DNA from: an uncultured Syntrophobacterales bacterium
GTDB lineage: Bacteria; Desulfobacterota; Binatia; UBA9968; JAJDTQ01
Assembly: GCA_964519455.1 (NCBI GenBank)
Contig: CAZFIU010000003.1
Location: 18,943 to 82,942, forward strand
Length of the DNA stretch: 64,000 nt
Reading direction: 5' to 3'
Under the pieces are notes generated by a model, which was not told where the DNA came from, did not search any database, and saw only the letters and a list, made by a program, of their open reading frames with translations. Shown here piece by piece: positions 13,289 through 51,429 of the stretch. The position numbers and the translations under genes are program-made. How positions within the stretch are numbered: position 1 is the stretch's first letter; every line of letters begins with the position of its first letter.

Positions 13289-13290
13289 CC

Positions 13291-13460: not shown

Positions 13461-13646
13461 CCCCGAATCGTCATTCCCGCGAAACAGACTGTGTCAAAAC
13501 TCACACGATCCGGAAACAGCGCCGCCCCCCGTGACGTCATTCCCGCGAAAGCGGGAATCCATGGGTAGGGCGGGGCTGAAACAGGCTCGTTCCCCACCTC
13601 ACCCCGCCTGGATTCCCGCTTTCGCGGGAATGACGATTCGGGGGGC
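13461..13646. repeat. composite palindromic element of the TCATTCCCGC-GAAA-GCGGGAATGA family
   Basis: The outer arms CCCCGAATCGTCATTCCCGCGAAA (13461-13484) and TTCGCGGGAATGACGATTCGGGGGG (13621-13646) are reverse complements. An inner ~100-bp bipartite palindrome spans 13536-13634. Confidence 0.7.
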
Positions 13647-13708
13647 CGGGAATGAAGTAATGGGGACCGGGAATGACGTGTTGGGAGCCGGAAATGACGT
13701 ATTCGTAA
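13646..13708. repeat. three tandem ~21-bp copies of the half-unit CCGGGAATGA[A/C]GT...
   Basis: ccgggaatgaagtaatgggga / ccgggaatgacgtgttgggag / ccggaaatgacgtattcgtaa, read directly. Confidence 0.5.
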
Positions 13709-13838
13709 CGTCTCCGCCCGGAGGGTTTGGACACGACCGCTTTCGCGGGAACGACGGGTCGGGGTGTCGGCGGTGCTTCCCTTCCGCGGTCAACCGGAGT
13801 AGATTCCACTGCGAATTCCGAACCAGCGGGAGGGAACC

Positions 13839-16776: not shown

Positions 16777-17091
16777 CTACGGCTTCCTTGCCGTACTCCG
16801 GCGGCGCGAGCCTCCCCGCATCGGCGCATTCGCTTCCGCGGACCGGCCGGTAACCCAGTCCATCATCAAACGCTTGATCTGAGTCTGATAGGGCACGTCG
16901 TGCAGGCTCGCCTTGGCCTTGAACGCCTCCAGCAGGTTCTCCGGCACCTTGAGGCTGATCAGCTTGCTTCCCCTGCGCGCCGCGGGCGAATAGAGCCTGC
17001 GAAACTCATCGAGAAACCGCAGGATGTCCTCGGGCTTCATGCCCCTGCATTGCTCCAGGTACTCCTTCGAGAAGTACTGCACGGGTCTCAT
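16777..17091 (-). CDS. BrnA/DUF4415-like ribbon-helix-helix putative antitoxin
   Basis: The segment KLISLKVPENLLEAFKAKASLHDVPYQTQIKRLMMDWV matches the BrnA/COG3514 core. Its ATG overlaps the upstream nucleotidyltransferase stop (ATGA). Confidence 0.55.
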   Translation of the reverse strand: MRPVQYFSKEYLEQCRGMKPEDILRFLDEFRRLYSPAARRGSKLISLKVPENLLEAFKAKASLHDVPYQTQIKRLMMDWVTGRSAEANAPMRGGSRRRSTARKP

Positions 17092-17552
17092 GAGGCGATG
17101 CTCCTCAGTGCCTTGACGTCCTCGAGATCCTGTGGCCGGCCGCTCTTTTCCTTCATCCGAATCAGATCGTGAACCGCCACCACGGGCAAACGGAGTCCCC
17201 CCGCGGACACCATGTCCACCTGCATCGCCGACAGATCTTCGGTGATGATGATGTCCACCATCTCGGTGGGGTCCGCCGCATTGACGAAGCTCCAGGCGAT
17301 CAGATTGCGGTTGCGGATGTACTCTTCCCGGAAATCGAACACTTCCTGCGCCTTCAGCGGCAGGCGGGCCCGCAGTCCCAGGCGCTTCAGCGCCGATTCC
17401 GCGGCTGTAAAATTCTCACGGGACAACGCGAGCACCAAGTCCAGGTCAAGAGTGCCTCGCACCACGCCGTGCAGTGCGACCGCATGCCCGCCGGCGATGG
17501 CGAAACGGACCCGGGCTTGCCGGAGAGCGGTGACTACGCGCTCGACGAACAT
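17088..17552 (-). CDS. minimal nucleotidyltransferase (MNT-fold) protein
   Basis: The hG[GS]-x9-13-Dh[DE]h motif is present as IAGGHAVALHGVVRGTLDLDLVL. 154 aa. Confidence 0.6.
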   Translation of the reverse strand: MFVERVVTALRQARVRFAIAGGHAVALHGVVRGTLDLDLVLALSRENFTAAESALKRLGLRARLPLKAQEVFDFREEYIRNRNLIAWSFVNAADPTEMVDIIITEDLSAMQVDMVSAGGLRLPVVAVHDLIRMKEKSGRPQDLEDVKALRSIAS

Positions 17553-17557
17553 CTTTC

Positions 17558-17569
17558 TGGTATATACCA
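17558..17569. promoter_or_regulatory. perfect palindrome TGGTATATACCA (with a TATA -10-like core) upstream of the nucleotidyltransferase gene
   Basis: Read directly, 6 nt upstream of ATG 17552. Confidence 0.4.
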
Positions 17570-17606
17570 GATATATCCTATCCGGAAGGGGGCTGCTGCC
17601 TGAAGG

Positions 17607-17667
17607 GCGGACACCCGCGATCGCGGGTCCGCTTCGCCGAACCGAGGGGCATCCACCCTCGGTTCGG
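17607..17667. terminator. two strong GC hairpins downstream of the alcohol dehydrogenase gene
   Basis: GCGGACACCCGCGATCGCGGGTCCGC (17607-17632) and CCGAACCGAGGG-N8-CCTCGGTTCGG (17637-17667). Confidence 0.4.
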
Positions 17668-17695
17668 GCCTGTCGACGGCCGTGCTCCGCGGTCC

Positions 17696-18712
17696 TCAAT
17701 CCAGCACGAACACGCACTTTCCGGTGGTGGCGCCGTCGAAGACGCGGAACGCCTCCACGGCGTCGTCGAGGGCGAAGCGGTGCGTGACCAGGTCGTCCAC
17801 CGGGACGTTCTCCTCCACCATGAAGCGGCAGATCTCGATCAGCTCGGACTTGTTGAAGGTCCACGAGCCGACGATGGTGGCCACCTTGAAGATGACGTCG
17901 TCGCGGAAGTTGATGGTGGACGGGGGGCCCATGCCCACGTAGCAGCAGCGCCCGAAGGTACGCATGGCCTTGAGGATCTGGCTGCGGCATTCCGGGTTGC
18001 CGGAGGTCTCCAGCGCCGCCGTCGCCCCCAGGCCGCCGGTCAACTCCTTGATGGCTTCCACGGGGTCGGTGTCGGCGGCGTTGATGACATGGTCCGCGCC
18101 GTAACCGCGCGCCAGTTCAAGCCGCTCCGGCACCACGTCGACGGCGATGACCTTGGCCCCCATGTACTTCGCACACATCGTCCCGCTCAGACCCACCGGC
18201 CCTTGGCCGAAGATGGACACCACGTCGCCGCCGGCGATATGGATCTTCTTGAGGCCGTTCCAGGCCGTGCCGGTGCCGCAGGAGATGGCCGCCCCGGCCT
18301 CGAAGGACAGGTCCTCGGGGAGGTGGATCAGCAGGCGCGACGGCACCAGGATGTAGTCCGCGTTGGCGCCGTGGGCGTCCACGCCGCCGAAGGTCACGTG
18401 GCCGTGGGGGCAGGCCTGCTCGAACCCCATGGAGCAGATCTCGCAGATGCCGCAGCCCTCGTAGTGGTGCACCACCACCCGGTCGCCCACCTTCAGGCCG
18501 GCCGGGGCGCCGGCGCCCAGCTCGTGGATGACGCCGCAAGGCTCGTGGCCGGTGATGGCGTTGATGGCCACGTCCCCGCGGTAACGGTGCAGGTCGGTGC
18601 CGCACATGCCCGAGGCGCGGATCTTCACCACCGCCTGGCCCGGTCCCGCGTGGGGGTCCGGGAACTCCCGTATCTCGCACTCTCGGTTGCCGTTGAACAT
18701 CACGCCGCGCAT
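17696..18712 (-). CDS. zinc-dependent alcohol dehydrogenase (MDR family)
   Basis: GHE..G catalytic zinc motif (GHEPCGVIHELG), structural-zinc Cys cluster (CGICEICSMGFEQAC) and Rossmann fold GQGPVG. Confidence 0.85.
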   Translation of the reverse strand: MRGVMFNGNRECEIREFPDPHAGPGQAVVKIRASGMCGTDLHRYRGDVAINAITGHEPCGVIHELGAGAPAGLKVGDRVVVHHYEGCGICEICSMGFEQACPHGHVTFGGVDAHGANADYILVPSRLLIHLPEDLSFEAGAAISCGTGTAWNGLKKIHIAGGDVVSIFGQGPVGLSGTMCAKYMGAKVIAVDVVPERLELARGYGADHVINAADTDPVEAIKELTGGLGATAALETSGNPECRSQILKAMRTFGRCCYVGMGPPSTINFRDDVIFKVATIVGSWTFNKSELIEICRFMVEENVPVDDLVTHRFALDDAVEAFRVFDGATTGKCVFVLD

Positions 18713-18957
18713 GGGATTTCTCCTGTCTCCTCAGAGGGATTTGCCTACAGCCCGTATCACGGGGCCGGGCGGCAGGGCAACCGTGGTGGCTGAATGGCGG
18801 AGGGGCCGGGATGACGCGGAGGCGCCGCCGGGGCCGTGGGTCAAGGCGGTGGTCCGGGCCGGGCGGGCGGCATTCTCCGCGTGTCTGTCTACGGCGGACG
18901 CTTTGTGGTATTGCGTTGGGTGCCTGACGGCACAGTTTGAGAGACAGGAGGTCGCCC

Positions 18958-19290
18958 ATGGAATTTGCGAGTCTTGTGGACAAGGCGGAGACAGGGCAGC
19001 GGTTTACACGGCTCTTCGGCACGGAGAAGTCCTGCACCTGGATGCTTCATTTCAAGCCCGGCGACCACACGGACATGCACTTTCACGCGGAGCCGGAGAC
19101 CTTTCTGGTGGTGGAAGGAAAGGCCAGCGTCAAGGACATCAACGGGGGCGAACGCATCATCGAGCAGGGTGAGGTGGTCTTCTTCCCGGCCAAGGACTAC
19201 TACCAGATCACCAACGTGGGCACGGGCCGTCTGCTTCTCTACGGCAACCGACCCGAACCCTTCGGCGGGGTCCACGTCACCGCGAAATAG
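18958..19290 (+). CDS. cupin domain protein
   Basis: 110 aa single-cupin barrel (HFHAEPETFLVVEG...EVVFFPA). AGGAGG Shine-Dalgarno upstream. Confidence 0.75.
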   Translation: MEFASLVDKAETGQRFTRLFGTEKSCTWMLHFKPGDHTDMHFHAEPETFLVVEGKASVKDINGGERIIEQGEVVFFPAKDYYQITNVGTGRLLLYGNRPEPFGGVHVTAK

Positions 19291-19402
19291 CTGCGGTTTG
19301 CCGTCGCCACGCACGCACGGACGGCGCCACGTCGGGGTCAAACCTTGGAGATGGTAACTCCTTGACCTCGTTTTGAATTTTCGACATTTGCGGAGAGCGG
19401 TC

Positions 19403-20155
19403 ATGGCGAACGAGAGTGCATCTTCAGAAGCGCAATACCTCGTCGGCTCGGTCTGGCCCACCAACCGGACCGGCGTGCTCGGCGACACGGAGCTGGACCC
19501 GAAGCTGCCGGCCAGCATCCGCTTCGTGCACCTGAGCATGGAGTTCACCCAGGGCACCCAGGACGAGTTCCGGGCGGCCATGCCGGGCTACGAGGCCAAG
19601 GCGGCGGAACTGGCGGCGCTCGAACCGGACCTGATCCGGGTCATCGGGGCGCCGCCGTTCATGCTCCTGGGCTACGAGGGGGAGAGCGCCACCATCCGTT
19701 CCTGGGAAGAACGCTACGGCGTTCCGATGCTCACCTCGGGGATGAACCACGTGTGCGCGTTCCGCACCCTGGGAGTGCGACGCATCGTGGGCGCGAGCTA
19801 CTTCCCCGAGCACCTGAACGACCTGTTCCGCCAATACCTCACCGACGCGGGTTTCGAGATGCTGGGCATGGACGGTATCGACGTGCCTTTCGCCGACGTC
19901 CCCAAGGTGCCGTCCGAGGAGATCCAACGGCAGCTCACGGAGATGTTCGCCCGCCATCCGGGAGGAGAATGCCTGTACATGCTGGGGTCGGCGTGGAAGA
20001 CCCTGGACATCATCGAACCCCTGGAGGCCGACCTGGGCGTGCCCGTGGTGTACGCCCCCACCGCGCGCTGCTGGGAGACGCAGATGCGCCTGGGCGTGCG
20101 CCAGCCGATTCCGGGCTATGGACGACTGCTGGCGGAGATGCCGGAACCGGTCTGA
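19403..20155 (+). CDS. Asp/Glu/hydantoin racemase superfamily protein (maleate isomerase/arylmalonate decarboxylase-like)
   Basis: Two-domain racemase-like pattern of ~250 aa. Confidence 0.7.
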   Translation: MANESASSEAQYLVGSVWPTNRTGVLGDTELDPKLPASIRFVHLSMEFTQGTQDEFRAAMPGYEAKAAELAALEPDLIRVIGAPPFMLLGYEGESATIRSWEERYGVPMLTSGMNHVCAFRTLGVRRIVGASYFPEHLNDLFRQYLTDAGFEMLGMDGIDVPFADVPKVPSEEIQRQLTEMFARHPGGECLYMLGSAWKTLDIIEPLEADLGVPVVYAPTARCWETQMRLGVRQPIPGYGRLLAEMPEPV

Positions 20156-20172
20156 GAACTCGGGTTTCCCCG

Positions 20173-20243
20173 CCTCACCCCACCTGGATTCCCGCCCCCG
20201 ATCGGGGTCGAGGGTAAACTTTCGCGGGAATGACGTTTCGGGC
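20173..20243. repeat. degenerate copy of the GGGAATGAC palindromic element
   Basis: ...CCCCACCTGGATTCCCGC...TTTCGCGGGAATGACG, read directly. Confidence 0.55.
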
Positions 20244-20342
20244 ATTCCTCGCGGCCCATCGGCTTATCTGGTACACACGGAGGAATCTCGTCACGACATC
20301 CTGCCGAGGCAGGCCCACGCACACCTACAGGGAGGAATCGCA

Positions 20343-20633
20343 ATGTCTGTAAGACTGATCGTCACCATCAACGCCGTCGAGGGGAAGGGCGCGGAACTTG
20401 CCGATGCGTACCGGGGCCGCTGCGAGGAAGTCATGCAGGAGCCGGGGTGCGAGCAGTTCGAGGTGTTCCGCAGCGTGGTGAACCCGGACAAGATGGTGAT
20501 CATCGAGCGTTGGGTGGACCAGGCCGCCCTGGACGTGCATGCGCAGGTGAACACCACTCGTCCGCCGCTCAAGCCCGAGCTTCGCGCCGGCGCCACCGAG
20601 CGCGAGGACTACGAGTACAACCGCACTCGCTAG
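20343..20633 (+). CDS. antibiotic-biosynthesis-monooxygenase (ABM) family protein
   Basis: 96 aa ferredoxin-like ABM fold. GGAGG Shine-Dalgarno upstream. Confidence 0.75.
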   Translation: MSVRLIVTINAVEGKGAELADAYRGRCEEVMQEPGCEQFEVFRSVVNPDKMVIIERWVDQAALDVHAQVNTTRPPLKPELRAGATEREDYEYNRTR

Positions 20634-20720
20634 CCTCCCGTCCGGGTCCTCATCCCAACGCAACACACTCCGGGGGGCGCGGGCACTGTCCCCGCTCCCC
20701 GGCATGAAAGGTCCCCGTCC

Positions 20721-21902
20721 ATGCCCGCAGCACTCGAAGGCATCAAGATCCTCGACGTCACCAACTACATCGCCGGTCCCTACGCGTCGCTCCTGTTGGC
20801 CGACCTGGGCGCCGACGTGTACAAGATCGAGACCCCCGGCAAGGGGGACCCGTTCCGCACCTGGGACAAGGAGCCCAAGGACTACAGCCCGAGCTTCTGC
20901 GCGCTCAACCGCAACAAGAAGAGCGTCACCCTCGACATGAAGGCGCCGGAGGGCCGGGAGGTGTTCCTCAAGCTGGCCAGGGACGCGGACGTCATCGTCG
21001 AGAACCTGCGCCCGGGCGTGGTGGACCGGCTGGGCATCGGCTACGACGTGGTGCGGGCGATGAACCCGCGCATCATCTACTGCTCCATCTCCGCCTTCGG
21101 CCAGGACGGCCCGTACCGGGAGCGGCCCGGCTACGACACCATCGGCCAGTCCCTGAGCGGGCTGTTGAGCGTGCTCACCGACGTCGAGCAGCCCCACGGC
21201 CCGGGGGCGGCCTTCTCCGACCATCTCGGCGGCGTCTTCGGCTGCTACGGCGTGCTCGCGGCGCTGGCCGCGCGCGAGCGCACCGGCGTGGGCCAGAAAG
21301 TGGAGACCTCGCTCCTGGAGTCCACCATCTGCTTCCTGGGGCTGAGCATGACCCAGTACCTCTTCAGCGGCGAGGTGCCGAGCATGCGCAGCCGCATCAA
21401 GACCGCCGGGGTCTACGCGCTGGTGGCGGGCGACGGCAAGCCCTTCGTCATCCACCTGTCCCATCCGCCGAAGTTCTGGATCGGCGTCACCGAGGTCATG
21501 GGGCGGCCCGACTTCCAGACCGACGAGCGTACCAAGGACCGTCCGGCGCGGGCCAAGAACTACGATTTCATCTCCGAGACCTTCGGCGCGGTGGTGCAGT
21601 CCGCGCCGCGCGAGCACTGGCTCCAGGAACTGCGTGTCCGGGACGTCCCGTGCGCGCCCATCAACAACTTCGCCGAGGTGTTCGAGGATCCGCAGGTGCA
21701 GCACCTGGACCGGCTCATGGACGTGGACCATCCCGAGTTCGGCCCGTTCAAGCTGGTGCGCAACGGCCTCAACCTGCTGGACACCCCCATCACGCTGAAG
21801 CTCCGGCCGCCGACGCTGGGCGAGCACAACGAGGAGACCCTGGCGGAGCTCGGTTACGGCCCAGAGGAGATCCGCTCCCTCCAGGAAAGAAACATAGTAT
21901 GA
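20721..21902 (+). CDS. CaiB/BaiF family III CoA-transferase
   Basis: Pattern LEGIKILDVTNYIAGPYASLLLADLGADVYKIE... and ~390 aa length. Confidence 0.85.
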   Translation: MPAALEGIKILDVTNYIAGPYASLLLADLGADVYKIETPGKGDPFRTWDKEPKDYSPSFCALNRNKKSVTLDMKAPEGREVFLKLARDADVIVENLRPGVVDRLGIGYDVVRAMNPRIIYCSISAFGQDGPYRERPGYDTIGQSLSGLLSVLTDVEQPHGPGAAFSDHLGGVFGCYGVLAALAARERTGVGQKVETSLLESTICFLGLSMTQYLFSGEVPSMRSRIKTAGVYALVAGDGKPFVIHLSHPPKFWIGVTEVMGRPDFQTDERTKDRPARAKNYDFISETFGAVVQSAPREHWLQELRVRDVPCAPINNFAEVFEDPQVQHLDRLMDVDHPEFGPFKLVRNGLNLLDTPITLKLRPPTLGEHNEETLAELGYGPEEIRSLQERNIV

Positions 21903-21918
21903 CCGGCGCCGTGCTCTC

Positions 21919-23052
21919 GTGCTCGAGCCGGAATTCATGAGCCCGGCGTCCTCGCGCTTCGGCTCCCGCGCGCGCGCCGCGCTGCGCCGGAGCGTTGCCG
22001 ACCTCCGCGCGCGCATGCCCGCCATCCTGACCGCCCTGGCGGTAGGCATTCCCGCGGGATACCTGTGCGACCGGCTGGACCTGCCCATCCCCTGGATGAT
22101 CGGGCCCATGGTGGCCATCGCCGCTCTCAACCTGCTGGGCGTCCCCATGGATTCGCCGCCCTACGCGCGCCAGATGGGGCAGGTGGTGCTCGGCTCGGGG
22201 ATCTCCCTGTACTTCACCCCGCCGGTCGTGGTGGCGCTGGCGGCCAACTGGCTGCCCATCGTCCTCGCCACCCTGGCGACCTTTATCATCGGCGCCCTGG
22301 GGGCGGTGATCCTGAGCCGCGTCTCGGGAGTGGAGACGCGGTCGACCTTTTTCGCGTCCATCCCGGGCGGCGCCATGGCCATGGCCAACCTGGCCCACCG
22401 CTACGGCGCGCAGATCGCGCCGGTGGCGGTGGCCCACAGCCTGCGGGTCTCCATCCTCGTGCTGGTGATCCCCTTCGCCCTGACCTACGGCGGCATCCCG
22501 CTGGAGACCGGCGACTACCGCCCGACCGTGCCCCTGGACGTGGGCGTGCTGGTGCCCTGGCTGCTCGCCGGCTTCGTGCTGGGCGAGACCTCCGAGCGCC
22601 TGCACATTCACAACGGCTACCTGCTCATGCCGATCTTCTTCGGCGCCGCGTTCACGGTGAGCGAGGTGCCGCTCTCGGCCGTGCCCCAGTGGATGACCAA
22701 CTTCGCCCAGCTCATGTTCGGCCTGGTGCTGGGGGCGCGCTACGAACGCGCCTTCTTCATGCGCTACAAGCTGTTCATCCCGTTCGCCCTGCTCAACTCG
22801 TTCTTCGTGCTGGCGGCGTCGGTGGTGGTGGCGGCGGTGCTGTCCTGGGGCTTCCGGCTCCCCATCGCCACCATGATCATCTCCACCTCGCCCGGCGGCC
22901 TCGCCGAAATGGCCATCACCGCCCAGGCACTGGGCATCGGGGTGCCCGCGGTCATCGCCTTTCATCTGGCCCGAATCGTGGTAGTGAACATGGGCACGCA
23001 ACACATCTACGTCGGCGCCACCCGCTGGCTGCCGCGCCTCCGCCGCCGGTGA
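21919..23052 (+). CDS. AbrB-family membrane protein (COG3180, putative transporter duplication)
   Basis: About 10 TM helices with an internally duplicated hydrophobic core. The start could instead be 21937 or 22015. Confidence 0.6.
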   Translation: MLEPEFMSPASSRFGSRARAALRRSVADLRARMPAILTALAVGIPAGYLCDRLDLPIPWMIGPMVAIAALNLLGVPMDSPPYARQMGQVVLGSGISLYFTPPVVVALAANWLPIVLATLATFIIGALGAVILSRVSGVETRSTFFASIPGGAMAMANLAHRYGAQIAPVAVAHSLRVSILVLVIPFALTYGGIPLETGDYRPTVPLDVGVLVPWLLAGFVLGETSERLHIHNGYLLMPIFFGAAFTVSEVPLSAVPQWMTNFAQLMFGLVLGARYERAFFMRYKLFIPFALLNSFFVLAASVVVAAVLSWGFRLPIATMIISTSPGGLAEMAITAQALGIGVPAVIAFHLARIVVVNMGTQHIYVGATRWLPRLRRR

Positions 23053-23112: not shown

Positions 23113-24009
23113 ATGGAAGAGAAGATCCGGTTTTTCAGCGGCCCCGGCTACGGCCTGTCCGCCGTCATCACCATCCCCGACGGCCGCGACCGGTCGGACC
23201 GCCACCCCGGCGTCATCCTGTGCCAGGGATACGCCGGCCTCAAGGAGGCGCTGATGCCCTTGGTGGCGGAACGTCTCGCCGCCGAGGGGTACGTAACGCT
23301 CCGCTTCGACTATCGCGGCTTCGGCGAGAGCGAAGGGCCGCGCCATCGCCTGATCCCGCTGGAACAGATCGAGGACATCCGCAACGGCCTCACCTGCCTC
23401 GCCGTCCGCGAGGAGGTGGACCCCGACCGCCTGGCCATCTGGGGCACCAGCTTCGGCGGCGCCCACGCGGCCTACGCCGCCGCCGTCGATGAGCGGGTCC
23501 GCTGCATCGTCAGCGTCGTGGGGGTCGGCGACGGCGAACGCTGGCTCCGTTGCCTGCGCCGCGAATGGGAGTGGCAGGCGTTCCTGAAAGAGCTCGACGA
23601 CGACCGCGACCGGCGCGTGCTGAGCGGCCAGTCCCGGCGCGTCCACCCTTACCACATCATGGAGACGACTCCGGAAGGGTGGGAGTTCTGGAAGGAGACC
23701 GTGGCCGCCAACCCGGAGCGGGGCGAGGTGGAAATGCCCCTGGAATGCGCCGACGCCATCATCGAGTACAAGCCCGAGGCCGCCGCCCACGAAATCGGCT
23801 GCCCGGCCCTCTACGTCTCCGCCGAACTCGACACCCTCACCCCGCTGGAAGAACAGTTGAACCTCTACGAAGGCTCACCCGAACCCAAGGACTACATCGT
23901 GGTACCGGACGTCAACCATCACGACATCTACAAGGAGCCGCACCTGAGCCACCTGCTGGACCTGTCCGTGGCATGGTTCGACGAGTACCTGAAGGAGGCG
24001 GGAGACTAG
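23113..24009 (+). CDS. alpha/beta hydrolase
   Basis: Nucleophile elbow GTSFGG plus Asp/His downstream. GGAGG Shine-Dalgarno upstream. Confidence 0.8.
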   Translation: MEEKIRFFSGPGYGLSAVITIPDGRDRSDRHPGVILCQGYAGLKEALMPLVAERLAAEGYVTLRFDYRGFGESEGPRHRLIPLEQIEDIRNGLTCLAVREEVDPDRLAIWGTSFGGAHAAYAAAVDERVRCIVSVVGVGDGERWLRCLRREWEWQAFLKELDDDRDRRVLSGQSRRVHPYHIMETTPEGWEFWKETVAANPERGEVEMPLECADAIIEYKPEAAAHEIGCPALYVSAELDTLTPLEEQLNLYEGSPEPKDYIVVPDVNHHDIYKEPHLSHLLDLSVAWFDEYLKEAGD

Positions 24010-24088
24010 AGAGAGGAGGCAGGAGACCAGAGAGGCGAAGAGAACGGGCCTTTCCCAAAAAACAGTTGCCACCCGCTTAAGAAGGTCC

Positions 24089-24116
24089 TTGAAGTGACCG
24101 ACCTTTATTGTACAAT
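24089..24116 (+). promoter_or_regulatory. sigma70-like promoter (TTGAAG-N16-TACAAT) upstream of the small membrane protein
   Basis: Read directly in a locally AT-richer stretch. Confidence 0.3.
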
Positions 24117-24155
24117 CGATATCGTACTCGCTTCTTCATCGGGGAGGTTGCAACC

Positions 24156-24371
24156 ATGAGTGCCGTTCCGTCGGATCTCTATATCCTTGTCGCCATCATC
24201 GGCACGGGCATCTCCTTGGCGGGACTCATTCTGCCGGACCTGCGCTCAATGAAAAGGGACATCGGCGAACTCCGGGACAGTATCGGCGAGCTCCGGGAGC
24301 GCATGGCTCGTATCGAGGGGCTCTTCGAAGGCTTTGCCCGCCGGGAAAACAACCGCGACAACGTGCCCTGA
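24156..24371 (+). CDS. hypothetical small membrane protein with a tandem IGELR coiled-coil segment
   Basis: 71 aa with one TM helix. GGAGG Shine-Dalgarno upstream. No family recognised. Confidence 0.4.
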   Translation: MSAVPSDLYILVAIIGTGISLAGLILPDLRSMKRDIGELRDSIGELRERMARIEGLFEGFARRENNRDNVP

Positions 24372-24480
24372 TGCTTGACCCTATCCGTCTTCACGACATA
24401 GTCCTTTTGCGCTTCGGCGATTCTTGTACCACCGAGCTACACTCGACCCCTGAGAGCAGGGGCTTCAAGCGTGCTTGCGG

Positions 24481-24696
24481 TTAGTCCTGTGTGGCGGGCT
24501 CGCTGGCCAGGACTTCGTGGGTGACTTGAGCGATCTCATTCATGCCTCGCCGCAGCAAGCCGATTTCGTATCGTGTCAGCATCCGGGGAGCGGGCGAGGT
24601 ACCTAGCCTCCGATTGAGTAAGGCAATCGAAGGAGTGGCCGAAATTCTTCCGCCACCACCCTTCGAAGTCCGGTCCGTGTCGTTGTCGGAGTTCAT
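24481..24696 (-). CDS. hypothetical protein (weak)
   Basis: ORF only, Gly/low-complexity N-terminus and no recognisable family. Confidence 0.2.
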   Translation of the reverse strand: MNSDNDTDRTSKGGGGRISATPSIALLNRRLGTSPAPRMLTRYEIGLLRRGMNEIAQVTHEVLASEPATQD

Positions 24697-35161: not shown

Positions 35162-36247
35162 ATGACGCTGATCCTCACCAACGAGGAGATCGAGAGCTGC
35201 TTCACCCTGGAGGAATGCTTCAGGGTGATGGAGCCCGCGTTCATCGACCTGGGCAACGGCGCCGCCGCCAACCTGCCCCGCCAGGACCTGCTGGTGCCCG
35301 GTCCCCTGGAGGGCAGCTACCACGGCCTCAAGTCCGCCGGCGGCTCCATGCCGCGCTTCGGCGTGACCGCCGCCCGGCTGACCTCGGACATCGTCACCTG
35401 GCCTGAAGTGGACGGCGAGAGACGGCGTGTCAAGGTGCCGCTGGCCATGGGCAACAAGTACGTCGGCCTGGTGTTTCTCTTCAGCACCGCCACCGGCGAG
35501 TTGCTGGCCATCTTCCCCGACGGCCTGGTGCAGGCCATCCGCGTGGGCGTCACCAACGCCCTTTCCGCCAAGTACATGGCGCGACCGGAATCGTCGGTGC
35601 TGGGGCTCTACGGCTCCGGCTGGCAGGCACGCTCCGGCCTCCTGGCCATGTGCTCGGCCATGCCCATCCGGGAGGTTCAGGTGTACAGCCCGACCGAGGA
35701 GCACCGACGGGCCTTCGCCCGAGAAATGGATCGCCGGGTGGAGGCCGAGGTACGGGCGGTGGACGTTCCCGAGCACGCGGCCCGCGGCGCCGACATCGCG
35801 CTTCTGACCACCAACGCGCTGGTGCCCTTCTTTCCGGCCGACTGGATTCGCCAAGGCATGCACATCGCCACCGTCCGCTCCAGCGAGATGACCGTGGACG
35901 CGCTGCTGCGGTGCGACCGGCTGGTGGTGTCGAGCCGGGAAGCTGCCCGGCTGGTGACGCTGCCCGGCGAGGAGGAGCGAATCCCGGAGGCCGGCGAGGG
36001 CGACTACAGGCGAGAGGAACTGAGCGGCACCGAGGCCGACTGGAGCCGGAAGCCGGAGTTGGGAGAGGTCATGGCGGGAAGAGCCGCGGGCAGGGAAAGC
36101 GCGGCGGAGGCGACCTGCATGCTCAACTATGTCGGACTCGGGCTCCAGTTCGCCGCCGCTGGAGCCCGAATCTACGAGTTGGCCCGGGAACGCGGCCTCG
36201 GCAGGGAGCTTCCCACCGAATGGTTCTCGCAGGACGTTCACTCGTAG
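35162..36247 (+). CDS. ornithine cyclodeaminase/mu-crystallin family protein
   Basis: Rossmann motif GLYGSGWQA and OCD-family length and pattern. Confidence 0.8.
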   Translation: MTLILTNEEIESCFTLEECFRVMEPAFIDLGNGAAANLPRQDLLVPGPLEGSYHGLKSAGGSMPRFGVTAARLTSDIVTWPEVDGERRRVKVPLAMGNKYVGLVFLFSTATGELLAIFPDGLVQAIRVGVTNALSAKYMARPESSVLGLYGSGWQARSGLLAMCSAMPIREVQVYSPTEEHRRAFAREMDRRVEAEVRAVDVPEHAARGADIALLTTNALVPFFPADWIRQGMHIATVRSSEMTVDALLRCDRLVVSSREAARLVTLPGEEERIPEAGEGDYRREELSGTEADWSRKPELGEVMAGRAAGRESAAEATCMLNYVGLGLQFAAAGARIYELARERGLGRELPTEWFSQDVHS

Positions 36248-36323
36248 GTGGCGCCGTGGGAGGGTTCGCGTTGAGATTTTGGACTATGTGTCACCAAGCC
36301 GACACTTCATCCTCCTTTTCCTT

Positions 36324-37214
36324 GTGCTAAAGATCATTACATGTTACCCGTTCGCCTCAGTGATTGCCAACCCAGAATTCAAACGGCAACCAAAGTACTT
36401 TTCGGCTTACGTGCGAACGCTCAGTCAGTACCTCGGTTACACTGTTCGGAGCAAAGGGATCGTAAAAGTGCCGACGCTTTCCGAAATAGGGGCAGGACTC
36501 GGCAACTTGGGGCTCGATCCGGGAAGAATTGTGGACGCGTTTGGTAAACCAACCCAGCTTGGTGCAGACTTGAATAGGTACTTTGAATATCGCTCGAGCA
36601 TTCTCAACAATTCAGTACAACATCAATTGATGACAGTCGAAGAGGCACGGCACACCTTCGAGGAGTTGCGCGAGGCCATGGTCTACGGTTGCCCCCTTCC
36701 GCTAAACAAGCAAAAAGGTGACAAGGCAGGCCCAGCGTACTTTACGGGAATCATCAATATGCTGATCGCTAACGGCTTGAGGGGGACTCAGTGCGACTAT
36801 TCACCCATGAAACTCACAACAATCACGAGAAACGCTACAGTAATCCGAACACTATCTAGACGGGTCGATGGCGCTTTCCCTGCCGTCGTGAATCCGTTGG
36901 CGTTGTGGGAAATCAAAGAGTACTACTACACTACCACGTTCGGAAGCAGAATCGCCGACGGAGTATACGAAACCCTTTTGGATGGCATGGAACTGCAAGA
37001 ACTCCGGGAACATGAGAATATTGACGTCAAACATTATCTGATGGTCGATGCGTACAACACGTGGTGGGAAATGGGTAGACCGTACCTCTGCCGTATGGTG
37101 GACATGCTCCACATGGGCTATGTCGATGAAGTCCTCTTTGGCAGGGATGTGATTGAGCGAATTCCCGAACTTACCAAGGAATGGCTGTCTCTGCTGGAGA
37201 ACAAGCCAGTCTAA
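36324..37214 (+). CDS. putative type II restriction endonuclease, DpnII/MboI-like (start uncertain: GTG 36324, TTG 36279 or GTG 36288)
   Basis: Low-GC (~50%) gene convergent with and overlapping a Dam-family methyltransferase. The segment PLALWEIKEYYYTTTFGSRIADGVYETLL resembles the DpnII ExK...SGSK catalytic core. No ATG is present, so an alternative start codon is required. Confidence 0.45.
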   Translation: MLKIITCYPFASVIANPEFKRQPKYFSAYVRTLSQYLGYTVRSKGIVKVPTLSEIGAGLGNLGLDPGRIVDAFGKPTQLGADLNRYFEYRSSILNNSVQHQLMTVEEARHTFEELREAMVYGCPLPLNKQKGDKAGPAYFTGIINMLIANGLRGTQCDYSPMKLTTITRNATVIRTLSRRVDGAFPAVVNPLALWEIKEYYYTTTFGSRIADGVYETLLDGMELQELREHENIDVKHYLMVDAYNTWWEMGRPYLCRMVDMLHMGYVDEVLFGRDVIERIPELTKEWLSLLENKPV

Positions 37215-38101
37215 TCGGGGCTGTAAGTCAACAACAGACGGTCGGCTACCTTTTCTTCCTCCAACGTTTCACCGTTCATCTGAAAGCGCCGCAACATGGA
37301 ACGTCCGCAGTCAATAAAAACCTCTCGATCAAATAGGCCTTTCGGGATTGAAAGGTCCACTTTGTGCTTCCCGGACTTCTTTGTCCCATCAATGCTCAGG
37401 GCGACGTAAACACCCCTGTTTTTGCAGTCCTCAATAGCGTTAAAGAGATCGGGCAAGTGGAAGGACTGTGCCCCGTAGAGTATCGCTTGGGAGTTACTAT
37501 AGGGCGGATCGCAATAGATGAGATCGTTAGGCCTAGCTTGTGCCATGGCCTCTTGATAATCCATCAGCAAGAATTGCGTGCCCGATGTTCTTGAGACCCA
37601 CTCATCCACGCGCCTTGAGAAGCTACTCGGGTGAATTGGATCGTGGGCACCGCAGGGCGTGGACATATACCCGTCGCGTTGCCTGAAACGCACTACGCCG
37701 CCATAGCACGACCGGCAGAGAAACACGAGGTCTGCTCCATTCGGATTGACGTTATATGCTGCCTTGATCTTCTCATACTGCCGTATCTTGTCCCCGCCTT
37801 TCAAAAACAGCCATCTCTCGGCGTACCAGAGTTTTAGCAGCTCGGGGTCGTTTGAGAGTGTCTGCCAGATTTCAACGAGAGGTTTGAAGGAATCAGAAGC
37901 GACCCCGCAACTCGGTGCAAGCGTTGCGAGGACGGCTGCACTTCCTACAAACGGTTCCCGGTACGTGCCCATCTGGGAGGGAAAGAATGAGGCTATCTGA
38001 TGGGCGAATCGCTGCTTGTTGCCAACCCACTTGAGCAACCCTGCCCTGAAGGGGCGGACCATCGCAGTATCCGAAAAAGGAAACCGTTGTTGGTAAACCA
38101 T
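37211..38101 (-). CDS. Dam-family N6-adenine DNA methyltransferase (D12 class)
   Basis: Motif I-like KWVGNK, EPFVGSAAV, and catalytic IYCDPPY (DPPY). Alternative start at 38062. Confidence 0.8.
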   Translation of the reverse strand: MVYQQRFPFSDTAMVRPFRAGLLKWVGNKQRFAHQIASFFPSQMGTYREPFVGSAAVLATLAPSCGVASDSFKPLVEIWQTLSNDPELLKLWYAERWLFLKGGDKIRQYEKIKAAYNVNPNGADLVFLCRSCYGGVVRFRQRDGYMSTPCGAHDPIHPSSFSRRVDEWVSRTSGTQFLLMDYQEAMAQARPNDLIYCDPPYSNSQAILYGAQSFHLPDLFNAIEDCKNRGVYVALSIDGTKKSGKHKVDLSIPKGLFDREVFIDCGRSMLRRFQMNGETLEEEKVADRLLLTYSPD

Positions 38102-43828: not shown

Positions 43829-47122
<3,294 letters not shown>

Positions 47123-47136
47123 GCCGGGAGACGAGT

Positions 47137-47598
47137 TCAAGATAGCGGGTCAAGGTCGAACAACCGGACATCTCCCGCTCTGGTAATGCGTGCGACCAAG
47201 GGCGGTTGCGTCCCTTCCACGACGCGCTGGATCTTCGGGAGCGCCTCGATGACCGCATAGGCCATCTCATCACCGGACATGTTGCCGGAAGGCAGAATGA
47301 AAGCTCTCGCGCGGCTTCGCTGCAGAGCATGACGCTCTACGGGTCGCCGACGTATCCGATCGTCTTTGGTCAGGATTAACCAGCCCCGCCGTCCTACTTC
47401 GGGGAGCCACTCACTGTCGGGTGAATTCGTTGGGAAATGGTCCTTGAGCAGTTCTACCGTAAGCCCCTGGCGACGAAGTGCAGACGCGACGACCTTGTCT
47501 CCCAGGCTCTGGTCGAGGAAGAAGGTTGGGCTCTCATGCGGCGTGTCTGTACTGCTCGCAACGGATCGCTTCTTCGATTTCCGATGGCGTTCGGCCAT
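47137..47598 (-). CDS. DUF5615 (PIN-like/Mut7-C) putative toxin
   Basis: FFLDQSLGDKVVASALRRQG...WLILTKDDRI matches the DUF5615 core. Its start overlaps the upstream DUF433 gene by ~65 nt, and no alternative in-frame start exists. Confidence 0.6.
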   Translation of the reverse strand: MAERHRKSKKRSVASSTDTPHESPTFFLDQSLGDKVVASALRRQGLTVELLKDHFPTNSPDSEWLPEVGRRGWLILTKDDRIRRRPVERHALQRSRARAFILPSGNMSGDEMAYAVIEALPKIQRVVEGTQPPLVARITRAGDVRLFDLDPLS

Positions 47599-48265
47599 AG
47601 TCGTCCGCGAGCTCTTCGACGGATTCGCCAGCCCCAAAGCGCTGGGAAATGACCTCCGTGGGTATGTGTGTCCCTGCCAACACCGGGCGCCCGAAGGCAA
47701 CACGAGGATCAACAACGATCACCTGCGGTCCAGCTTCGGCAGTATCGGCGACGTCAAGTTGAGGGTGCCGGCGGGTGAACAGGTAAAGCCTCACGGCCAG
47801 TCCTGAGGGGTCTCGCTCGATTCTGCGCAAGTGGATCTCCAGAACCTTGCGCATGCCGAGCTGGCCTTCCTTCGAAATGTTGACCAATTGCTCGAAGCTC
47901 TGGACGAAGAGATCCAGTCCATCCGTTTCGAAGCTGCGATCAGCCAACGGATGGGATGAAGGGTGTTTCCGCTTCAAGTAATCCAACGCCTGCCTGACAG
48001 TTGTCAACGAAACGTGATGCTGCCGGCGGATGGCGGCCAGGACATGGACTTCAACCAAGTTGACGAATGACAGCAAGCAACGGGCGGCGTCGGCGAGATC
48101 GACCAGGGGCTCAGAAAATTGCTGTCCACGGGATGTCGGATACCCACGCCCTCGGACCCAGGACCGCAGTGTCGCGACTGGTACCTGCAGATAGTGCGCG
48201 GCCTCCGAAATACCATAGGCCGGCAACTCAACGGGACTCTTTCCGCCGTAGAGATCGATCGTCAT
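47534..48265 (-). CDS. DUF433 domain protein with N-terminal HTH (putative antitoxin partner of DUF5615)
   Basis: C-terminal segment VIVVDPRVAFGRPVLAGTHIPTEVISQRFGAGESVEELADDYGRTPSEIEEAI matches DUF433. AAGGAG Shine-Dalgarno upstream of ATG 48265. Confidence 0.7.
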   Translation of the reverse strand: MTIDLYGGKSPVELPAYGISEAAHYLQVPVATLRSWVRGRGYPTSRGQQFSEPLVDLADAARCLLSFVNLVEVHVLAAIRRQHHVSLTTVRQALDYLKRKHPSSHPLADRSFETDGLDLFVQSFEQLVNISKEGQLGMRKVLEIHLRRIERDPSGLAVRLYLFTRRHPQLDVADTAEAGPQVIVVDPRVAFGRPVLAGTHIPTEVISQRFGAGESVEELADDYGRTPSEIEEAIRCEQYRHAA

Positions 48266-48534
48266 CTTCTCCTTCGGGGCTTCTCCGGGTTTCCAACTCC
48301 CAATCCGCACTTGGTCGCCGGGGCGATTGTAACACGAAAGGAGTACCAGATAACAACAAACGGACCCCCAGACGCACGGTGCATGTCATTTGGGGTTGAC
48401 TCTGACCCGTGTTCTGGAAAAATGGTGAGATAGATGGACAACTAGTCCACCGCGGCATCAGTAGAAGATTGCTTCGGGACTATGAAGCTCGGCTGCTGAG
48501 GCGAGCCGAGCCCGATCAAGAACAAGGAGACGCC

Positions 48535-49011
48535 ATGCACGCACTGAGACTCGCACTGGTCGGGTTGTTGGCCATATCCCTGTCCGGCTGTCTGAGCGGG
48601 GCGGGCGAGAAGGAAAGCGCGGGGACGCTGCTGGGCGCCGTGGCCGGCGGCATCGCCGGGGCACAACTCGGCAAGGGAGATGGACAGCTCCTCGCCACCG
48701 GAATCGGCACGCTCCTCGGCGCCGCCATCGGCAACGAGATCGGCAGATCCCTCGACCGGGCAGACCAACTCGCCTTGGAGCGGGCAACACAGAGTTCGCT
48801 GGAGACGGCGCCCGTCGGGCGGACCACCACCTGGAAGAATCCCGATTCCGGCAACCAGGGCACCATCACGCCGCGCAAGACGTTCAAGCGCAACGACGGT
48901 ACCTATTGCCGCGAGTTCACCCAGACCATCACCATCGGCGGCAAGACCGAAGAAGCCTACGGCACCGCATGCCGTCAGCCCGACGGCACCTGGAAGCTGG
49001 TCTCAGCGTAA
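48535..49011 (+). CDS. lipoprotein with Gly-zipper (17-kDa surface-antigen-like) region
   Basis: Signal peptide plus lipobox (LSGC), Gly-zipper segment GAVAGGIAGAQLG...GTLLGAAIGN. AAGGAG Shine-Dalgarno upstream. Confidence 0.65.
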   Translation: MHALRLALVGLLAISLSGCLSGAGEKESAGTLLGAVAGGIAGAQLGKGDGQLLATGIGTLLGAAIGNEIGRSLDRADQLALERATQSSLETAPVGRTTTWKNPDSGNQGTITPRKTFKRNDGTYCREFTQTITIGGKTEEAYGTACRQPDGTWKLVSA

Positions 49012-49328
49012 CGGCCCTTCTCTGAGCCGGGGTTCCACCTCAGCGGCGAAAATAGCTGAACCGTCACGTTCCAGTGCGCTAATCCGCCACCGTTCCACGG
49101 CTTGTTGCAGCCCATGTTGCTGGAAACGCTTTCCGTGCGGATTTCAGCGTGTTACCGGGGTAGGGTCAGTGCAGGCCAGCACACTTGACCGCAATTGTAA
49201 TAGTTCGCTGATGAGAACCATTATGCTGTTGCCTGCATCGACGTCCCCGCGCTCCACCTGCACCATTGACCGTAACAACAGTCGCCTTGAGCTTGTCGCC
49301 CACAGGATCCGCGTTACAGGAAAGTTCG

Positions 49329-50849
49329 ATGCCTAGGCTTGACGTCGCCTACGACGAGGTCCGTCACGGAAACTTGGTGACCGAGAAATCACTAGACACG
49401 GACTGCGTCGAAGTTTACTACGTCCCCTCAAGGGAACAGCTCGCATATGCCGGCCTGGACCCGGAGAACGCCTCCTCCTACCGTGTGAAGCTCTTAGAAT
49501 GGGGCCTCACCGACGGAAGTGATCGCCTTACCGTCTTCCCAATCAACACTTTCGGTGACCGGCCCGCCTTTCTCAAGCCAAAATACAAGAAGATCGAACG
49601 GATTACCCTAGCCGGCGCTAAACCAGTCCTTTCGCGGTCTCACGACGACGATGGCGAAGCGCCCAAGTACGCCAACTCCATTACGTTCGGCCCCACTAGA
49701 CCTATGGACCGACCTATCGATGACGTCCAGATTGAAGAACTTCCAACGTCACGCGAACAGGTCATCAGCATACTCGAGACGTTGCCGCCCGTATTCACCA
49801 AGGACTACGACTATGGACTTGGGTTGGCGAAGCCCTATCGATTCATTGTCGAAGCAGTTGAACACCTTTGTGACTGTACCGAACTCGTCATATCAGACGA
49901 CCACCACACGGAGGCCGTTGAGAACGTGTTCTATATTTCAACTGCTGACTTCGAGCATGTCCGACGATTTTTGAATAGCACTACCACCAACAGTCAAACA
50001 GCGACGCGATCAGTGAAAACGGCCGAAACCTACAATTTCTTCGCAGAAAGGCTAGGGAAACCAACGGTTCCGGCCAGCATTGGACGCCACCCCTTGCGCA
50101 AGAAACTAACGGCCCTTCTTCAACGAAAGGAGCCCGAACTGTCAGAGGAGGAACAAGAAGAACTCCTTGACACCATGGTGAGAAACGTCAAGACAATGTC
50201 GCAGGAGAACCCGCAACGGTTGGCGAGCCTGCAACGCGATATTGACCTCGTCAATCTGGAGGGGCTGATATCACGGTTCGAGGCAATGCTGACGAGTCCT
50301 CACAAAGAGGGAGTATGGCAAGAGTTTCTTAAAATAAACCCTTTCATCCTCAGTTTAGCGTTCGGTTACCCCATTATCCAGATCCAGGAGAAAGCCTCCG
50401 TAGGAGGACGCACCATTTCTGGCAAGGGCGACAAGTTTACGGACTTCCTCGTCACAAACAGCCTTACCAACAATACCGCGATAATCGAGATTAAGACACC
50501 GGAGACAAGGTTGCTGAGCAGCAAGAGTTATCGTGACGCTGTCTTGACGCCGTCGGCAGAACTATCAGGCGCAATCAACCAAACATTGGACCAGAAACAC
50601 CGCCTAGAGAAGGAAATTGTCCAGATCAAAGAAAACAGCGGACTGCACAACCTCAAATCGTACTCTGTAAACTGCTGCCTCATTATTGGTACTATGCCCA
50701 CGGAGGAACCCCGTATGAAGTCGTTCGAACTCTTTCGGGGAAACTCAAAGGATGTAGAAATAGTGACTTTCGATGAATTGCTAAAAAAGCTACGCAACCT
50801 TCAGTCTTTTCTAACGGCCCCGCCAGGGGACAACGACGTGCCGTTCTAG
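49329..50849 (+). CDS. Shedu-like defence protein (DUF4263 PD-(D/E)xK nuclease domain) with an uncharacterised ~330-aa N-terminal region
   Basis: C-terminal WQEFLKINPFIL...GDKFTDFLV...AIIEIKTPETRL...CLIIGTMP...FELFRG...IVTFDELL fits the DUF4263/SduA core. The gene is low-GC (~52%). The TTG at 49266 is an alternative start. Confidence 0.65.
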   Translation: MPRLDVAYDEVRHGNLVTEKSLDTDCVEVYYVPSREQLAYAGLDPENASSYRVKLLEWGLTDGSDRLTVFPINTFGDRPAFLKPKYKKIERITLAGAKPVLSRSHDDDGEAPKYANSITFGPTRPMDRPIDDVQIEELPTSREQVISILETLPPVFTKDYDYGLGLAKPYRFIVEAVEHLCDCTELVISDDHHTEAVENVFYISTADFEHVRRFLNSTTTNSQTATRSVKTAETYNFFAERLGKPTVPASIGRHPLRKKLTALLQRKEPELSEEEQEELLDTMVRNVKTMSQENPQRLASLQRDIDLVNLEGLISRFEAMLTSPHKEGVWQEFLKINPFILSLAFGYPIIQIQEKASVGGRTISGKGDKFTDFLVTNSLTNNTAIIEIKTPETRLLSSKSYRDAVLTPSAELSGAINQTLDQKHRLEKEIVQIKENSGLHNLKSYSVNCCLIIGTMPTEEPRMKSFELFRGNSKDVEIVTFDELLKKLRNLQSFLTAPPGDNDVPF

Positions 50850-50913
50850 CCGGTCAACGGCCAGACACGGGCGTAACTCGGCAGCCCTGTTCTGGGCACA
50901 ATCTGGGCTCTTT

Positions 50914-51429
50914 TCACATCCCCATCGCCTTCCACACCACCCCCTCGTGCAGGGGCGCGCCCATTATCACGATAAAGACGAAGTAGACGAACGCCCACGT
51001 GACGGCGGTGATGGAGAGGGTCATGAACCAGCGCTCCGCGGAGCGCAGGCGCATGAACAGGATCATGAAGAGCGGGATGGCCGCGAGGTAGCCGATGAAG
51101 TAGATCAGCGCCACGAGGAACAGGAGCCAGGCGGCGAAGCTGATCTCGCGGCGGAAGACGTTGCCGGAGGGGCGGCTTTCCTCGGACGGCGCGGCGGCGC
51201 GGCCGGTGTCGATGCCGAAGAGGTCGTATTCCTGGAAGAAGCTGAAGCGGCGGCCGACGGCGGGGATGGCGTCGATCAGGAACTGGAACAGGGTCAGGAG
51301 CAGCGTCGGGACGGCGATGATGAGCGGCACCAGGCGGGCGCGCGGCTGGTAGTCCAGGGCGAGGATGAGGAACAAGAGGACGAGGACGAAGACGCCGAGG
51401 GTGAAAAGGGTGCGGTCGTTGAATTTCAC
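50914..51429 (-). CDS. small 4-TM membrane protein, TctB-like (DUF1468)
   Basis: 171 aa with hydropathy and length like TctB. Assignment is tentative. Confidence 0.45.
   Translation of the reverse strand: MKFNDRTLFTLGVFVLVLLFLILALDYQPRARLVPLIIAVPTLLLTLFQFLIDAIPAVGRRFSFFQEYDLFGIDTGRAAAPSEESRPSGNVFRREISFAAWLLFLVALIYFIGYLAAIPLFMILFMRLRSAERWFMTLSITAVTWAFVYFVFIVIMGAPLHEGVVWKAMGM

Follow-up and report, generated by a model that had tools for sequence, protein, structure and literature searches.

Two separate insertions, a predicted toxin-antitoxin cassette and a single-gene Shedu system, flank a resident lipoprotein gene in Candidatus Binatia

We analyzed a 64,000-nt stretch of an uncultured bacterium of the Binatia (contig CAZFIU010000003.1, positions 18,943 to 82,942; the whole of this stretch is called the window below). 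Between 47.1 and 50.9 kb it carries a low-GC run of genes that a first-pass annotation had read as a single defence islet, composed of a toxin-antitoxin (TA) pair, a lipoprotein gene and a gene for SduA, the nuclease of the Shedu defence system. We find instead two separate insertions, one on either side of a lipoprotein gene, which is itself a core gene in conserved synteny and has a normal GC content. The left insertion is a cassette of two genes predicted to form a TA pair of the DUF433-PIN_10 type, and the right one holds only sduA, whose 506-aa product is, as judged from its sequence, a Shedu/SduA nuclease and an ordinary member of that known system. Taken as a whole, the locus is thus in all likelihood core chromosome of Candidatus Binatia that has received two independent foreign pieces, the TA cassette and a single-gene Shedu.

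Results

Two insertions and the gene between them

The open reading frame (ORF) list and the profile scans bear out the four genes that had been described for this run, at the coordinates that had been given. The features of the locus are listed below, where GC3 is the GC content at third codon positions and L030 is the locus of a related genome.

43829-47122, plus strand: PHP-UvrD fusion gene, 1097 aa (Pfam UvrD-helicase and UvrD_C, NCBIfam TIGR00375); GC 0.694, GC3 0.89
47133-48391, no strand: insertion 1, the TA cassette of 1,259 bp (blastn breakpoints against L030); GC 0.589
47137-47598, minus strand: PIN_10 (Mut7-C-like PIN) toxin-like gene, 153 aa (Pfam PF18478); GC3 0.65
47534-48265, minus strand: HTH_66 and DUF433 antitoxin-like gene, 243 aa (Pfam); GC3 0.66
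48396-48423, plus strand: promoter-like site, TTGACT, 16-nt spacer, AAAAAT (consensus scan; putative function)
48535-49011, plus strand: glycine-zipper/17-kDa-antigen lipoprotein gene, 158 aa, lipobox LSGC (Pfam 17kDa_Anti_2 and Rick_17kDa_Anti); GC 0.665, GC3 0.82
49011-50913, no strand: insertion 2, the hotspot cargo, sduA only (homology break against L030, L002 and L026); GC 0.530
49329-50849, plus strand: sduA, Shedu immune nuclease, 506 aa, type I architecture; GC 0.517, GC3 0.62
50914-51429, minus strand: tctB, right flank of the hotspot (Pfam TctB); GC3 0.96

Related loci were collected with the PHP-UvrD protein as query against a set of one genome per species. At least 543 genomes, spread over Binatia, Actinomycetota, Planctomycetota and Acidobacteriota, contain a relative of this protein, and the nearest are metagenome-assembled genomes (MAGs) of Candidatus Binatia at 76-85% identity. 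In the Binatia relatives, tblastn of the window proteins recovers a conserved order: TctA, PHP-UvrD, lipoprotein, TctB, OadA-like, PrpD. Lipoprotein orthologues of 72-87% identity directly follow PHP-UvrD in 8 loci of related genomes, as well as in L085, a syntenic metagenomic contig; the tctB orthologues are 76-87% identical. Two of the loci, L002 and L026, have the full order from TctA to PrpD without the TA pair and without SduA, with about 0.2 kb from PHP-UvrD to the lipoprotein gene and 0.64-0.74 kb from there to tctB. By tblastn, the PIN_10 and DUF433 genes have no match in the related loci or in L085, and SduA has none among the related genome loci examined.

The breakpoints follow from blastn. 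On the left side, window positions 46900-47132 correspond to L030 positions 13051-13283; on the right side, 48392-49010 correspond to 13286-13899. Between them the 1,259 bp of insertion 1 stand in place of 2 bp in L030. For insertion 2, the homology to L030, L002 and L026 ends at 49010 and restarts at 50914-50916. The right junction of insertion 1 lies 4 nt upstream of the promoter-like site. L030 has the site too, and the lipoprotein gene is presumably transcribed from it. Since this site is intact up to the junction and the gene is syntenic, the lipoprotein gene is a resident core gene, not cargo, and the supposed islet becomes two independent acquisitions.

The base composition agrees with these boundaries. 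Mean GC of the window is 0.658 (standard deviation 0.053 over 500-bp segments) and the dip reaches a minimum of 0.47. The GC drop reported for this stretch is real, but it is not continuous: it falls into two blocks (0.589 and 0.530) with the lipoprotein gene between them at 0.665. GC3 is 0.65, 0.66 and 0.62 for the PIN, DUF433 and SduA genes, compared with 0.82-0.96 in the genes for TctA, PHP-UvrD, the lipoprotein, TctB, the OadA-like protein and PrpD. The relatives are without the PIN/DUF433 and SduA genes at exactly these sites, which supports horizontal acquisition, as first supposed, and not codon usage as the source of the low GC. A near-identical public contig of 7.9 kb (L001) contains the same genes.

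These observations leave very little room for the original proposal that 47.1-50.9 kb arrived as one islet of TA pair, lipoprotein and Shedu, with PHP-UvrD as part of the defence context. It would explain the closeness of the three low-GC genes, all found inside 3.7 kb, and the PHP-UvrD protein does match PADLOC models of GajB. However, the 8 related loci and L085 all have the lipoprotein gene next to PHP-UvrD without the TA pair, the GC and GC3 of the gene are host-like, and its promoter-like upstream sequence is shared with L030 right up to the junction. In addition, L085 has SduA without the TA pair, and elsewhere the TA pair stands alone in metabolic neighbourhoods. The GajB matches are confined to the UvrD-helicase region of PHP-UvrD (residues ~526-1071) and are generic UvrD similarity in a gene shared by 543 genomes. 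PHP-UvrD is therefore a conserved core neighbour that forms the left flank of the locus, and its adjacency to defence genes, to which meaning had been attached, is incidental. A Gabija identity for PHP-UvrD was also considered and rejected, there being no GajA partner of the OLD-family/TOPRIM kind; the adjacent genes are only tctA and the TA cassette or the lipoprotein gene.

Searches for signs of the mode of insertion were negative. No tRNA was found across the 64-kb window, and no convincing direct or inverted repeats flank the insertions. An inverted pair of 14 nt (47192 and 48305) does not rise above the chance level of the other 16 pairs, and the number of terminator-like sites does not exceed that of shuffled sequence. 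Each junction of insertion 1 (47126-47132 and 48368-48380) has the tetranucleotide AGAC, and the empty site of L030 has it once (GGCAGACACGGG). Microhomology or a short duplication of the target could account for it, but it is too short for significance.

A variable gap between the lipoprotein gene and tctB

The content of the site of insertion 2 differs from genome to genome. In the relatives, the gap between the lipoprotein gene and tctB holds 0.64-8.1 kb of other content, and the gap is a recurrent variable hotspot for defence or TA cargo in Candidatus Binatia. DarT and DarG, a single-stranded DNA ADP-ribosylating toxin with its macrodomain antitoxin, recur in it. Both are encoded in the gap of L003 (13868-15605), as confirmed by Pfam and PADLOC, with DarT aligning only to positions 1-124 of the 201-position Pfam model. 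The gap of L030 (14704-15771) has a macro-domain ORF that is near-identical to the DarG of L003 over the first 60 residues and is DarG-like by similarity only; this seems to be all that is left of the pair there, with short ORF remnants upstream. In L070, a type I restriction-modification (R-M) system (HsdM, HsdS, AAA_13) is followed by DarT- and DarG-like ORFs (20291-22028), recognised only by their similarity to the pair of L003. In L069, DarG is followed by proteins of 1091 and 592 aa (16855-21992). The former has a weak PADLOC similarity to Avs4/PDC-M54A (E 1e-11 to 1e-13) and no Pfam match, the latter has no match in Pfam or PADLOC, and both may be uncharacterised defence genes. The gap of L004 (14407-15877) contains overlapping ORFs for SLFN_AlbA_2 (297 aa) and HATPase_c_4 (211 aa), which may be one gene split by a frameshift.

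The remaining case, L085, has BrnT/BrnA and SduA at the same site, without the PIN/DUF433 cassette. Its SduA is 74% identical (73.6%) to that of the window, close to the identity of the flanking genes in the same comparison (PHP-UvrD 79%, lipoprotein 78%, TctB 78%, PrpD 73%). From the shared site and this similar divergence one could argue that SduA is an old vertical resident, already present in the common ancestor with the L085 organism and lost or replaced elsewhere. However, the SduA of L085 is 84% identical to that of L086, which lies in an unrelated context with a DDE transposase nearby. Furthermore, the GC content of the three genes (~0.49 in L085 and L086, 0.49-0.52 overall) shows no drift toward the host in genomes of ~0.64-0.66 GC, and L030, the nearest locus by core genes (PHP-UvrD 84-85%), has DarG instead. 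Because the L085 protein is closer to the L086 copy than to the window copy, the sequences favour repeated exchange at the hotspot over simple vertical descent, and we regard the latter as unlikely.

The nuclease of insertion 2

The interval 49011-50913 contains only sduA between core genes, so the system is encoded by a single gene, which is preceded by a ribosome-binding site (AGGAAAG). In PADLOC, 20 SduA models match the protein. The best of them, PDLC00384 (E 1.5e-148), covers residues 30-522 of the 527-aa ORF with its positions 5-466 of 476. The C-terminal DUF4263 signature noted in the first reading is confirmed by Pfam SduA_C (PF14082, DUF4263) with 92.1 bits for a cut-off of 27, over profile positions 3-159 of 159, and by a full set of PD-(D/E)xK motifs. 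Matches of SduA in the PDB sequence search are limited to the C-terminal part: 8TI8, the SduA of Bacillus cereus, is matched by query residues 282-494 (E 5.8e-31), and 8PS4, the SduA of Escherichia coli, by residues 327-496 (E 1.8e-4). The architecture is that of type I Shedu, with two N-terminal lobes, helices at residues 227-293 and the nuclease starting at about residue 296-326, and divides as follows.

49329-50006, plus strand: SduA N-terminal module, residues 1-226 (AlphaFold2 model, conservation)
50007-50213, plus strand: SduA alpha-helical linker, residues 227-295 (AlphaFold2 secondary structure; helices 227-242, 255-264 and 273-293)
50214-50849, plus strand: SduA DUF4263 PD-(D/E)xK nuclease domain, residues 296-506 (residue mapping onto B. 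cereus SduA)

The catalytic residues map one by one onto the B. cereus protein: E327 (codon 50307-50309) onto E204, D372 (50442-50444) onto D249, E387 (50487-50489) onto E264, K389 (50493-50495) onto K266 and Q418 (50580-50582) onto Q295. The PD-(D/E)xK site is thus complete, with the E of motif I, the D of motif II, the ExK of motif III and the Q of motif IV, and all five residues are kept in more than 90% of 117 homologues. In the B. cereus system, mutating the corresponding residues abolishes defence (Gu et al.). More than 100 full-length homologues have about 50% identity or above. The genes next to homologues of SduA differ: in L085 they are BrnTA, in L086 they are unrelated to these, and on plasmids they belong to type I R-M.

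Among the characterised systems, the Shedu of B. cereus B4264 (8TI8, 8TI9 and 8TIA; Type 1A, Gu et al.) shares with it the nuclease domain with the end of the linker, the single-gene layout of N-domain, linker and nuclease, and all catalytic motifs. It differs in length, 380 aa compared with 506 aa, and its GGK is GGR in the window protein. The SduA of E. coli KTE10 (8PS4 and 8PS5; Loeff et al.) has the DUF4263 nuclease and the same three-part layout; there, the nuclease on its own is toxic and the N-domain has a regulatory role (Loeff et al.). For PDLC00384 and the Shedu proteins of RefSeq plasmids, the likeness to the window SduA includes the N-terminal module. Those plasmid homologues lie within type I R-M operons, whereas sduA of the window is alone between core genes.

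The N-terminal module and linker

The N-terminal region had been described as unrecognised and as a candidate new sensor variant. It is true that the first ~295-325 residues of SduA have no match in Pfam, NCBIfam or PHROGs, and that the N-domain has no Pfam family in SduA and 28 homologues. However, PDLC00384 spans nearly the whole protein, so that the N-terminal region is already part of a catalogued SduA model. Out of 1.84 billion cluster representatives, a profile of the N-domain picked out 456. Those with a length of at least 430 aa number 78, and the Shedu nuclease is present in all but one of them (77). The sequences therefore point to a large family that is essentially confined to Shedu proteins and already captured by detection tools, and the description as a new variant falls with them.

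The same family is found on plasmids. The N-domain alone matched 67 plasmid records, and nearly all of the plasmid matches listed fall within genes whose annotation is 'Shedu immune nuclease family protein' or DUF4263, with 3 in regions that are unannotated or labelled 'hypothetical protein'. WP_124740529.1 (Methylocystis rosea pGW6_2) and WP_092891938.1 (Roseicitreum antarcticum pRA02) have 42-46% identity over ~88-91% of the N-domain. The nearest relatives of the subfamily that are annotated, on the alphaproteobacterial plasmids L087 (NZ_CP034088.1) and L090 (NZ_CP061500.1), lie in type I R-M operons with the order hsdM-rhuM-hsdS-Shedu-small gene-hsdR. A more distantly related module, with 27.9% identity over residues 65-236, is found in a single allele, WP_004883043.1, on conjugative plasmids of 240-490 kb in Citrobacter, Klebsiella, Enterobacter and E. 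coli (L089 and ~50 similar). In L089 (NZ_CP026208.1, E. coli pECO-109b; IncHI1A/IncP) the gene adjoins that for a RelB/DinJ antitoxin.

An AlphaFold2 model of residues 1-295 (predicted local distance difference test 83.3, predicted template modelling score 0.78) suggests a beta-rich lobe at ~15-119 and an alpha/beta lobe at ~142-221, followed by three linker helices (227-293). The alpha/beta lobe holds the conserved motif LExLPxxFTKDYDYGLGLxxxYRFI. The modelled N-terminal module has no fold match in the PDB, and it is not of the Whirly/PC4-like kind that marks Shedu Type 1A. The N-terminal module is acidic, with isoelectric points of 4.5-5.2; over 117 homologues the medians for the two lobes are 5.1 and 4.5, both acidic, and the linker is basic. 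The alignment to the B. cereus chain begins at query residue 282, chain residue 164, which is within the linker domain of that protein (118-170); the helical linker of the window SduA would thus correspond to the B. cereus linker domain.

From these properties it is conceivable, though we think it doubtful, that the acidic module is a new Shedu sensor that does not bind nucleic acid, either of a phage protein or small molecule or as a DNA-mimicking plug of the nuclease that is displaced on infection. Apart from the absence of a Pfam family in 29 members and the acidity of both lobes, the strong conservation of the surface motif LExLPxxFTKDYDYGLGL speaks for it. So does the catalogue of Gu et al., in that the part of their Table S3 with clusters N1, N2, N3 and N10 does not contain WP_124740529, WP_092891938 or WP_004883043; in the same part, labels beginning 4263N1-N4 occur and none begins with N5 or N6. 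On the other hand, Gu et al., who found 7,687 Shedu proteins and noted frequent embedding in R-M systems, catalogued 79 N-domain clusters (59 of them unnamed) and modelled every cluster. The present family, with homologues in NCBI, is very probably included. Net charge is also weak evidence on the ligand, the basic helical linker could bind DNA, and several close plasmid homologues lie inside type I R-M operons, suggesting a DNA-centred function.

The predicted toxin-antitoxin cassette of insertion 1

The two genes of insertion 1 are predicted from their sequences to be a TA pair of the DUF433-PIN_10 type, as in Mycobacterium tuberculosis Rv2018 (PDB 5AF3). This type has been described by Matelska et al. 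(2017), who cite 5AF3 as a DUF433 antitoxin partner of PIN_10. The assignment as a TA pair had been made on the first reading, and the families, the 5AF3 match and the conservation of the pair in another genome (L082) all agree with it. Of the two family labels given then, DUF433 was right. DUF5615 was not among the families reported for the PIN gene at E<=0.01, and the match is to Pfam PIN_10 (PF18478) instead, with 81.7 bits for a cut-off of 26.2. The other protein matches DUF433 (48.1 bits) and HTH_66 (37.9 bits) in Pfam, and its residues 13-234 align with residues 14-236 of the 241 in 5AF3 (E 1.5e-17), at low identity. Searches of NCBIfam and PHROGs with the PIN, DUF433 and SduA N-domain sequences gave nothing beyond one weak PHROG of unknown function.

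The genes overlap by 65 nt on the same strand (47534-47598). For the DUF433 gene, an alternative GTG start at 48310 would give 258 aa; the 243-aa form is the one called on L001. The gene annotation of L001 skipped the PIN gene, probably due to the overlap. We also considered whether the PIN gene is frameshifted, since an out-of-frame ATGA lies over the antitoxin stop, and rejected this because the homologues keep the start at ATG-47598 and the basic extension that follows. Specifically, homologues of the PIN protein are 146-161 aa long and align over 95-99% of it. The aligned part takes in the basic N-terminal extension (MAxRxxKSKKRS), which is encoded in the overlap and is kept in 11 homologues. 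Over 12 sequences, D29, D79 and E88 of PIN_10 are invariant, and D61 and D80 nearly so. The same pair with the same 65-nt overlap (6001-6065) is found among metabolic genes in a Desulfurellaceae MAG (L082), and in L083 an HTH_66 gene precedes PIN_10.

Compared with known systems, Rv2018 of M. tuberculosis has the same layout of a helix-turn-helix with C-terminal DUF433 and a partner of the PIN_10 family, at low identity. In the window the PIN_10 protein has its conserved basic extension within the 65-nt overlap. VapBC10 of Synechocystis, a PIN-COG2442 pair, has been found to be a functional TA system by experiment, its toxin causing growth arrest and being neutralised by the antitoxin. The DUF433/COG2442 antitoxin gene lies, as in the window, upstream of that for the PIN-like toxin, with which it is co-transcribed in Synechocystis. 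VapB10 (ssr2962) is a short protein that consists of DUF433 and is not known to have the N-terminal HTH_66 region.

TA modules of several types provide phage defence, and this pair lies 1 kb from SduA. A DUF433-PIN_10 pair is also found within a defence island of Belliella baltica (Matelska et al.). From this, the pair could be taken as an abortive-infection module that cooperates with Shedu. However, the pair is a separate insertion, and L085 has SduA but lacks the pair; in L082 and L083 it sits among metabolic or housekeeping genes; and the PADLOC defence models have no significant match to either protein. Cooperation of this kind is accordingly improbable, and no evidence links the TA pair functionally to Shedu. 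The cassette is most likely a self-stabilising type II module, in which the antitoxin would bind the toxin and its own promoter, and in which loss of the antitoxin would free the PIN_10 nuclease.

Other features of the window

A second low-GC segment, at 36.1-38.5 kb with a minimum GC of 0.49, carries a type II R-M pair, given first below. Two fusion genes at 57527-62929 look like sterol-type triterpenoid synthesis genes, and a short low-GC segment with a minimum of 0.57 is found at 23801-24500.

36129-37214, plus strand: type II restriction endonuclease (Pfam DUF7690 and DUF7687; PADLOC REase_II, E 6e-68)
37211-38101, minus strand: D12-class N6-adenine methyltransferase (PADLOC MTase_II, E 2.6e-66)
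57527-60871: fusion of squalene epoxidase and squalene/oxidosqualene cyclase, 1114 aa
60908-62929: fusion of GPP34 and cytochrome P450, 673 aa; low-GC segment in part

Discussion

How the Shedu system of the window would work can be drawn by analogy with its characterised relatives. In those of B. cereus and E. coli, the N-domain and linker are regulatory and the truncated nucleases are toxic (Gu et al., Loeff et al.), and it is because of this toxicity in both systems that inhibition by the N-domain and linker is proposed. By the same scheme, the SduA of the window would form a tetramer through its nuclease domains, its N-terminal module and linker would hold the nuclease inactive, and sensing of an infection cue by the module would activate the protein. 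Activated SduA would then cut or nick the DNA of the invading phage, without killing the cell. As the N-terminal module is acidic and dissimilar to the end-clamp of the E. coli protein and to the Whirly fold, the comparison argues mildly against copying either of these sensing modes to the window SduA.

Several points weigh against the reading of this locus as two foreign pieces, one of them a Shedu system of the usual kind. No integrase, tRNA or flanking repeat accounts for the arrival of either insertion, and the SduA of L085 has diverged about as much as the core genes around it (74% compared with 73-79%). PADLOC gives the TA pair no defence model, the only match being an insignificant one of the helix-turn-helix (E 0.008). 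For the nuclease, tetramerisation, autoinhibition and the non-abortive mode are carried over from relatives whose likeness to the window SduA is limited to the nuclease domain and a portion of the linker, and the acidic lobes fit poorly with the models of characterised Shedu in which the N-domain is a DNA-end clamp or binds single-stranded DNA. Finally, Y312 and Y315 of the octamer interface in B. cereus are E435 and G438 in the window SduA (50631-50642), and the octamer-based route of activation may not apply to its subfamily.

Shedu, its variable N-domains and DUF433-PIN_10 pairs have all been described before, and existing tools would call the sduA of the window. What the locus adds is first a caution: a low-GC run of genes can consist of two unrelated insertions with a resident gene between them, and synteny is needed before an island is called. 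Candidatus Binatia is a poorly studied uncultured lineage, and its lipoprotein-tctB hotspot can be mined for unannotated defence genes, for example those for the 1091-aa and 592-aa proteins of L069. The N-module subfamily is widespread, including clinical Enterobacteriaceae plasmids, where the module class is also found on large conjugative plasmids of IncHI type, and it is a reasonable target for work on Shedu sensing. If true, a sensor of something other than nucleic acid, or a DNA-mimicking plug, would define a mechanistically distinct class of Shedu.

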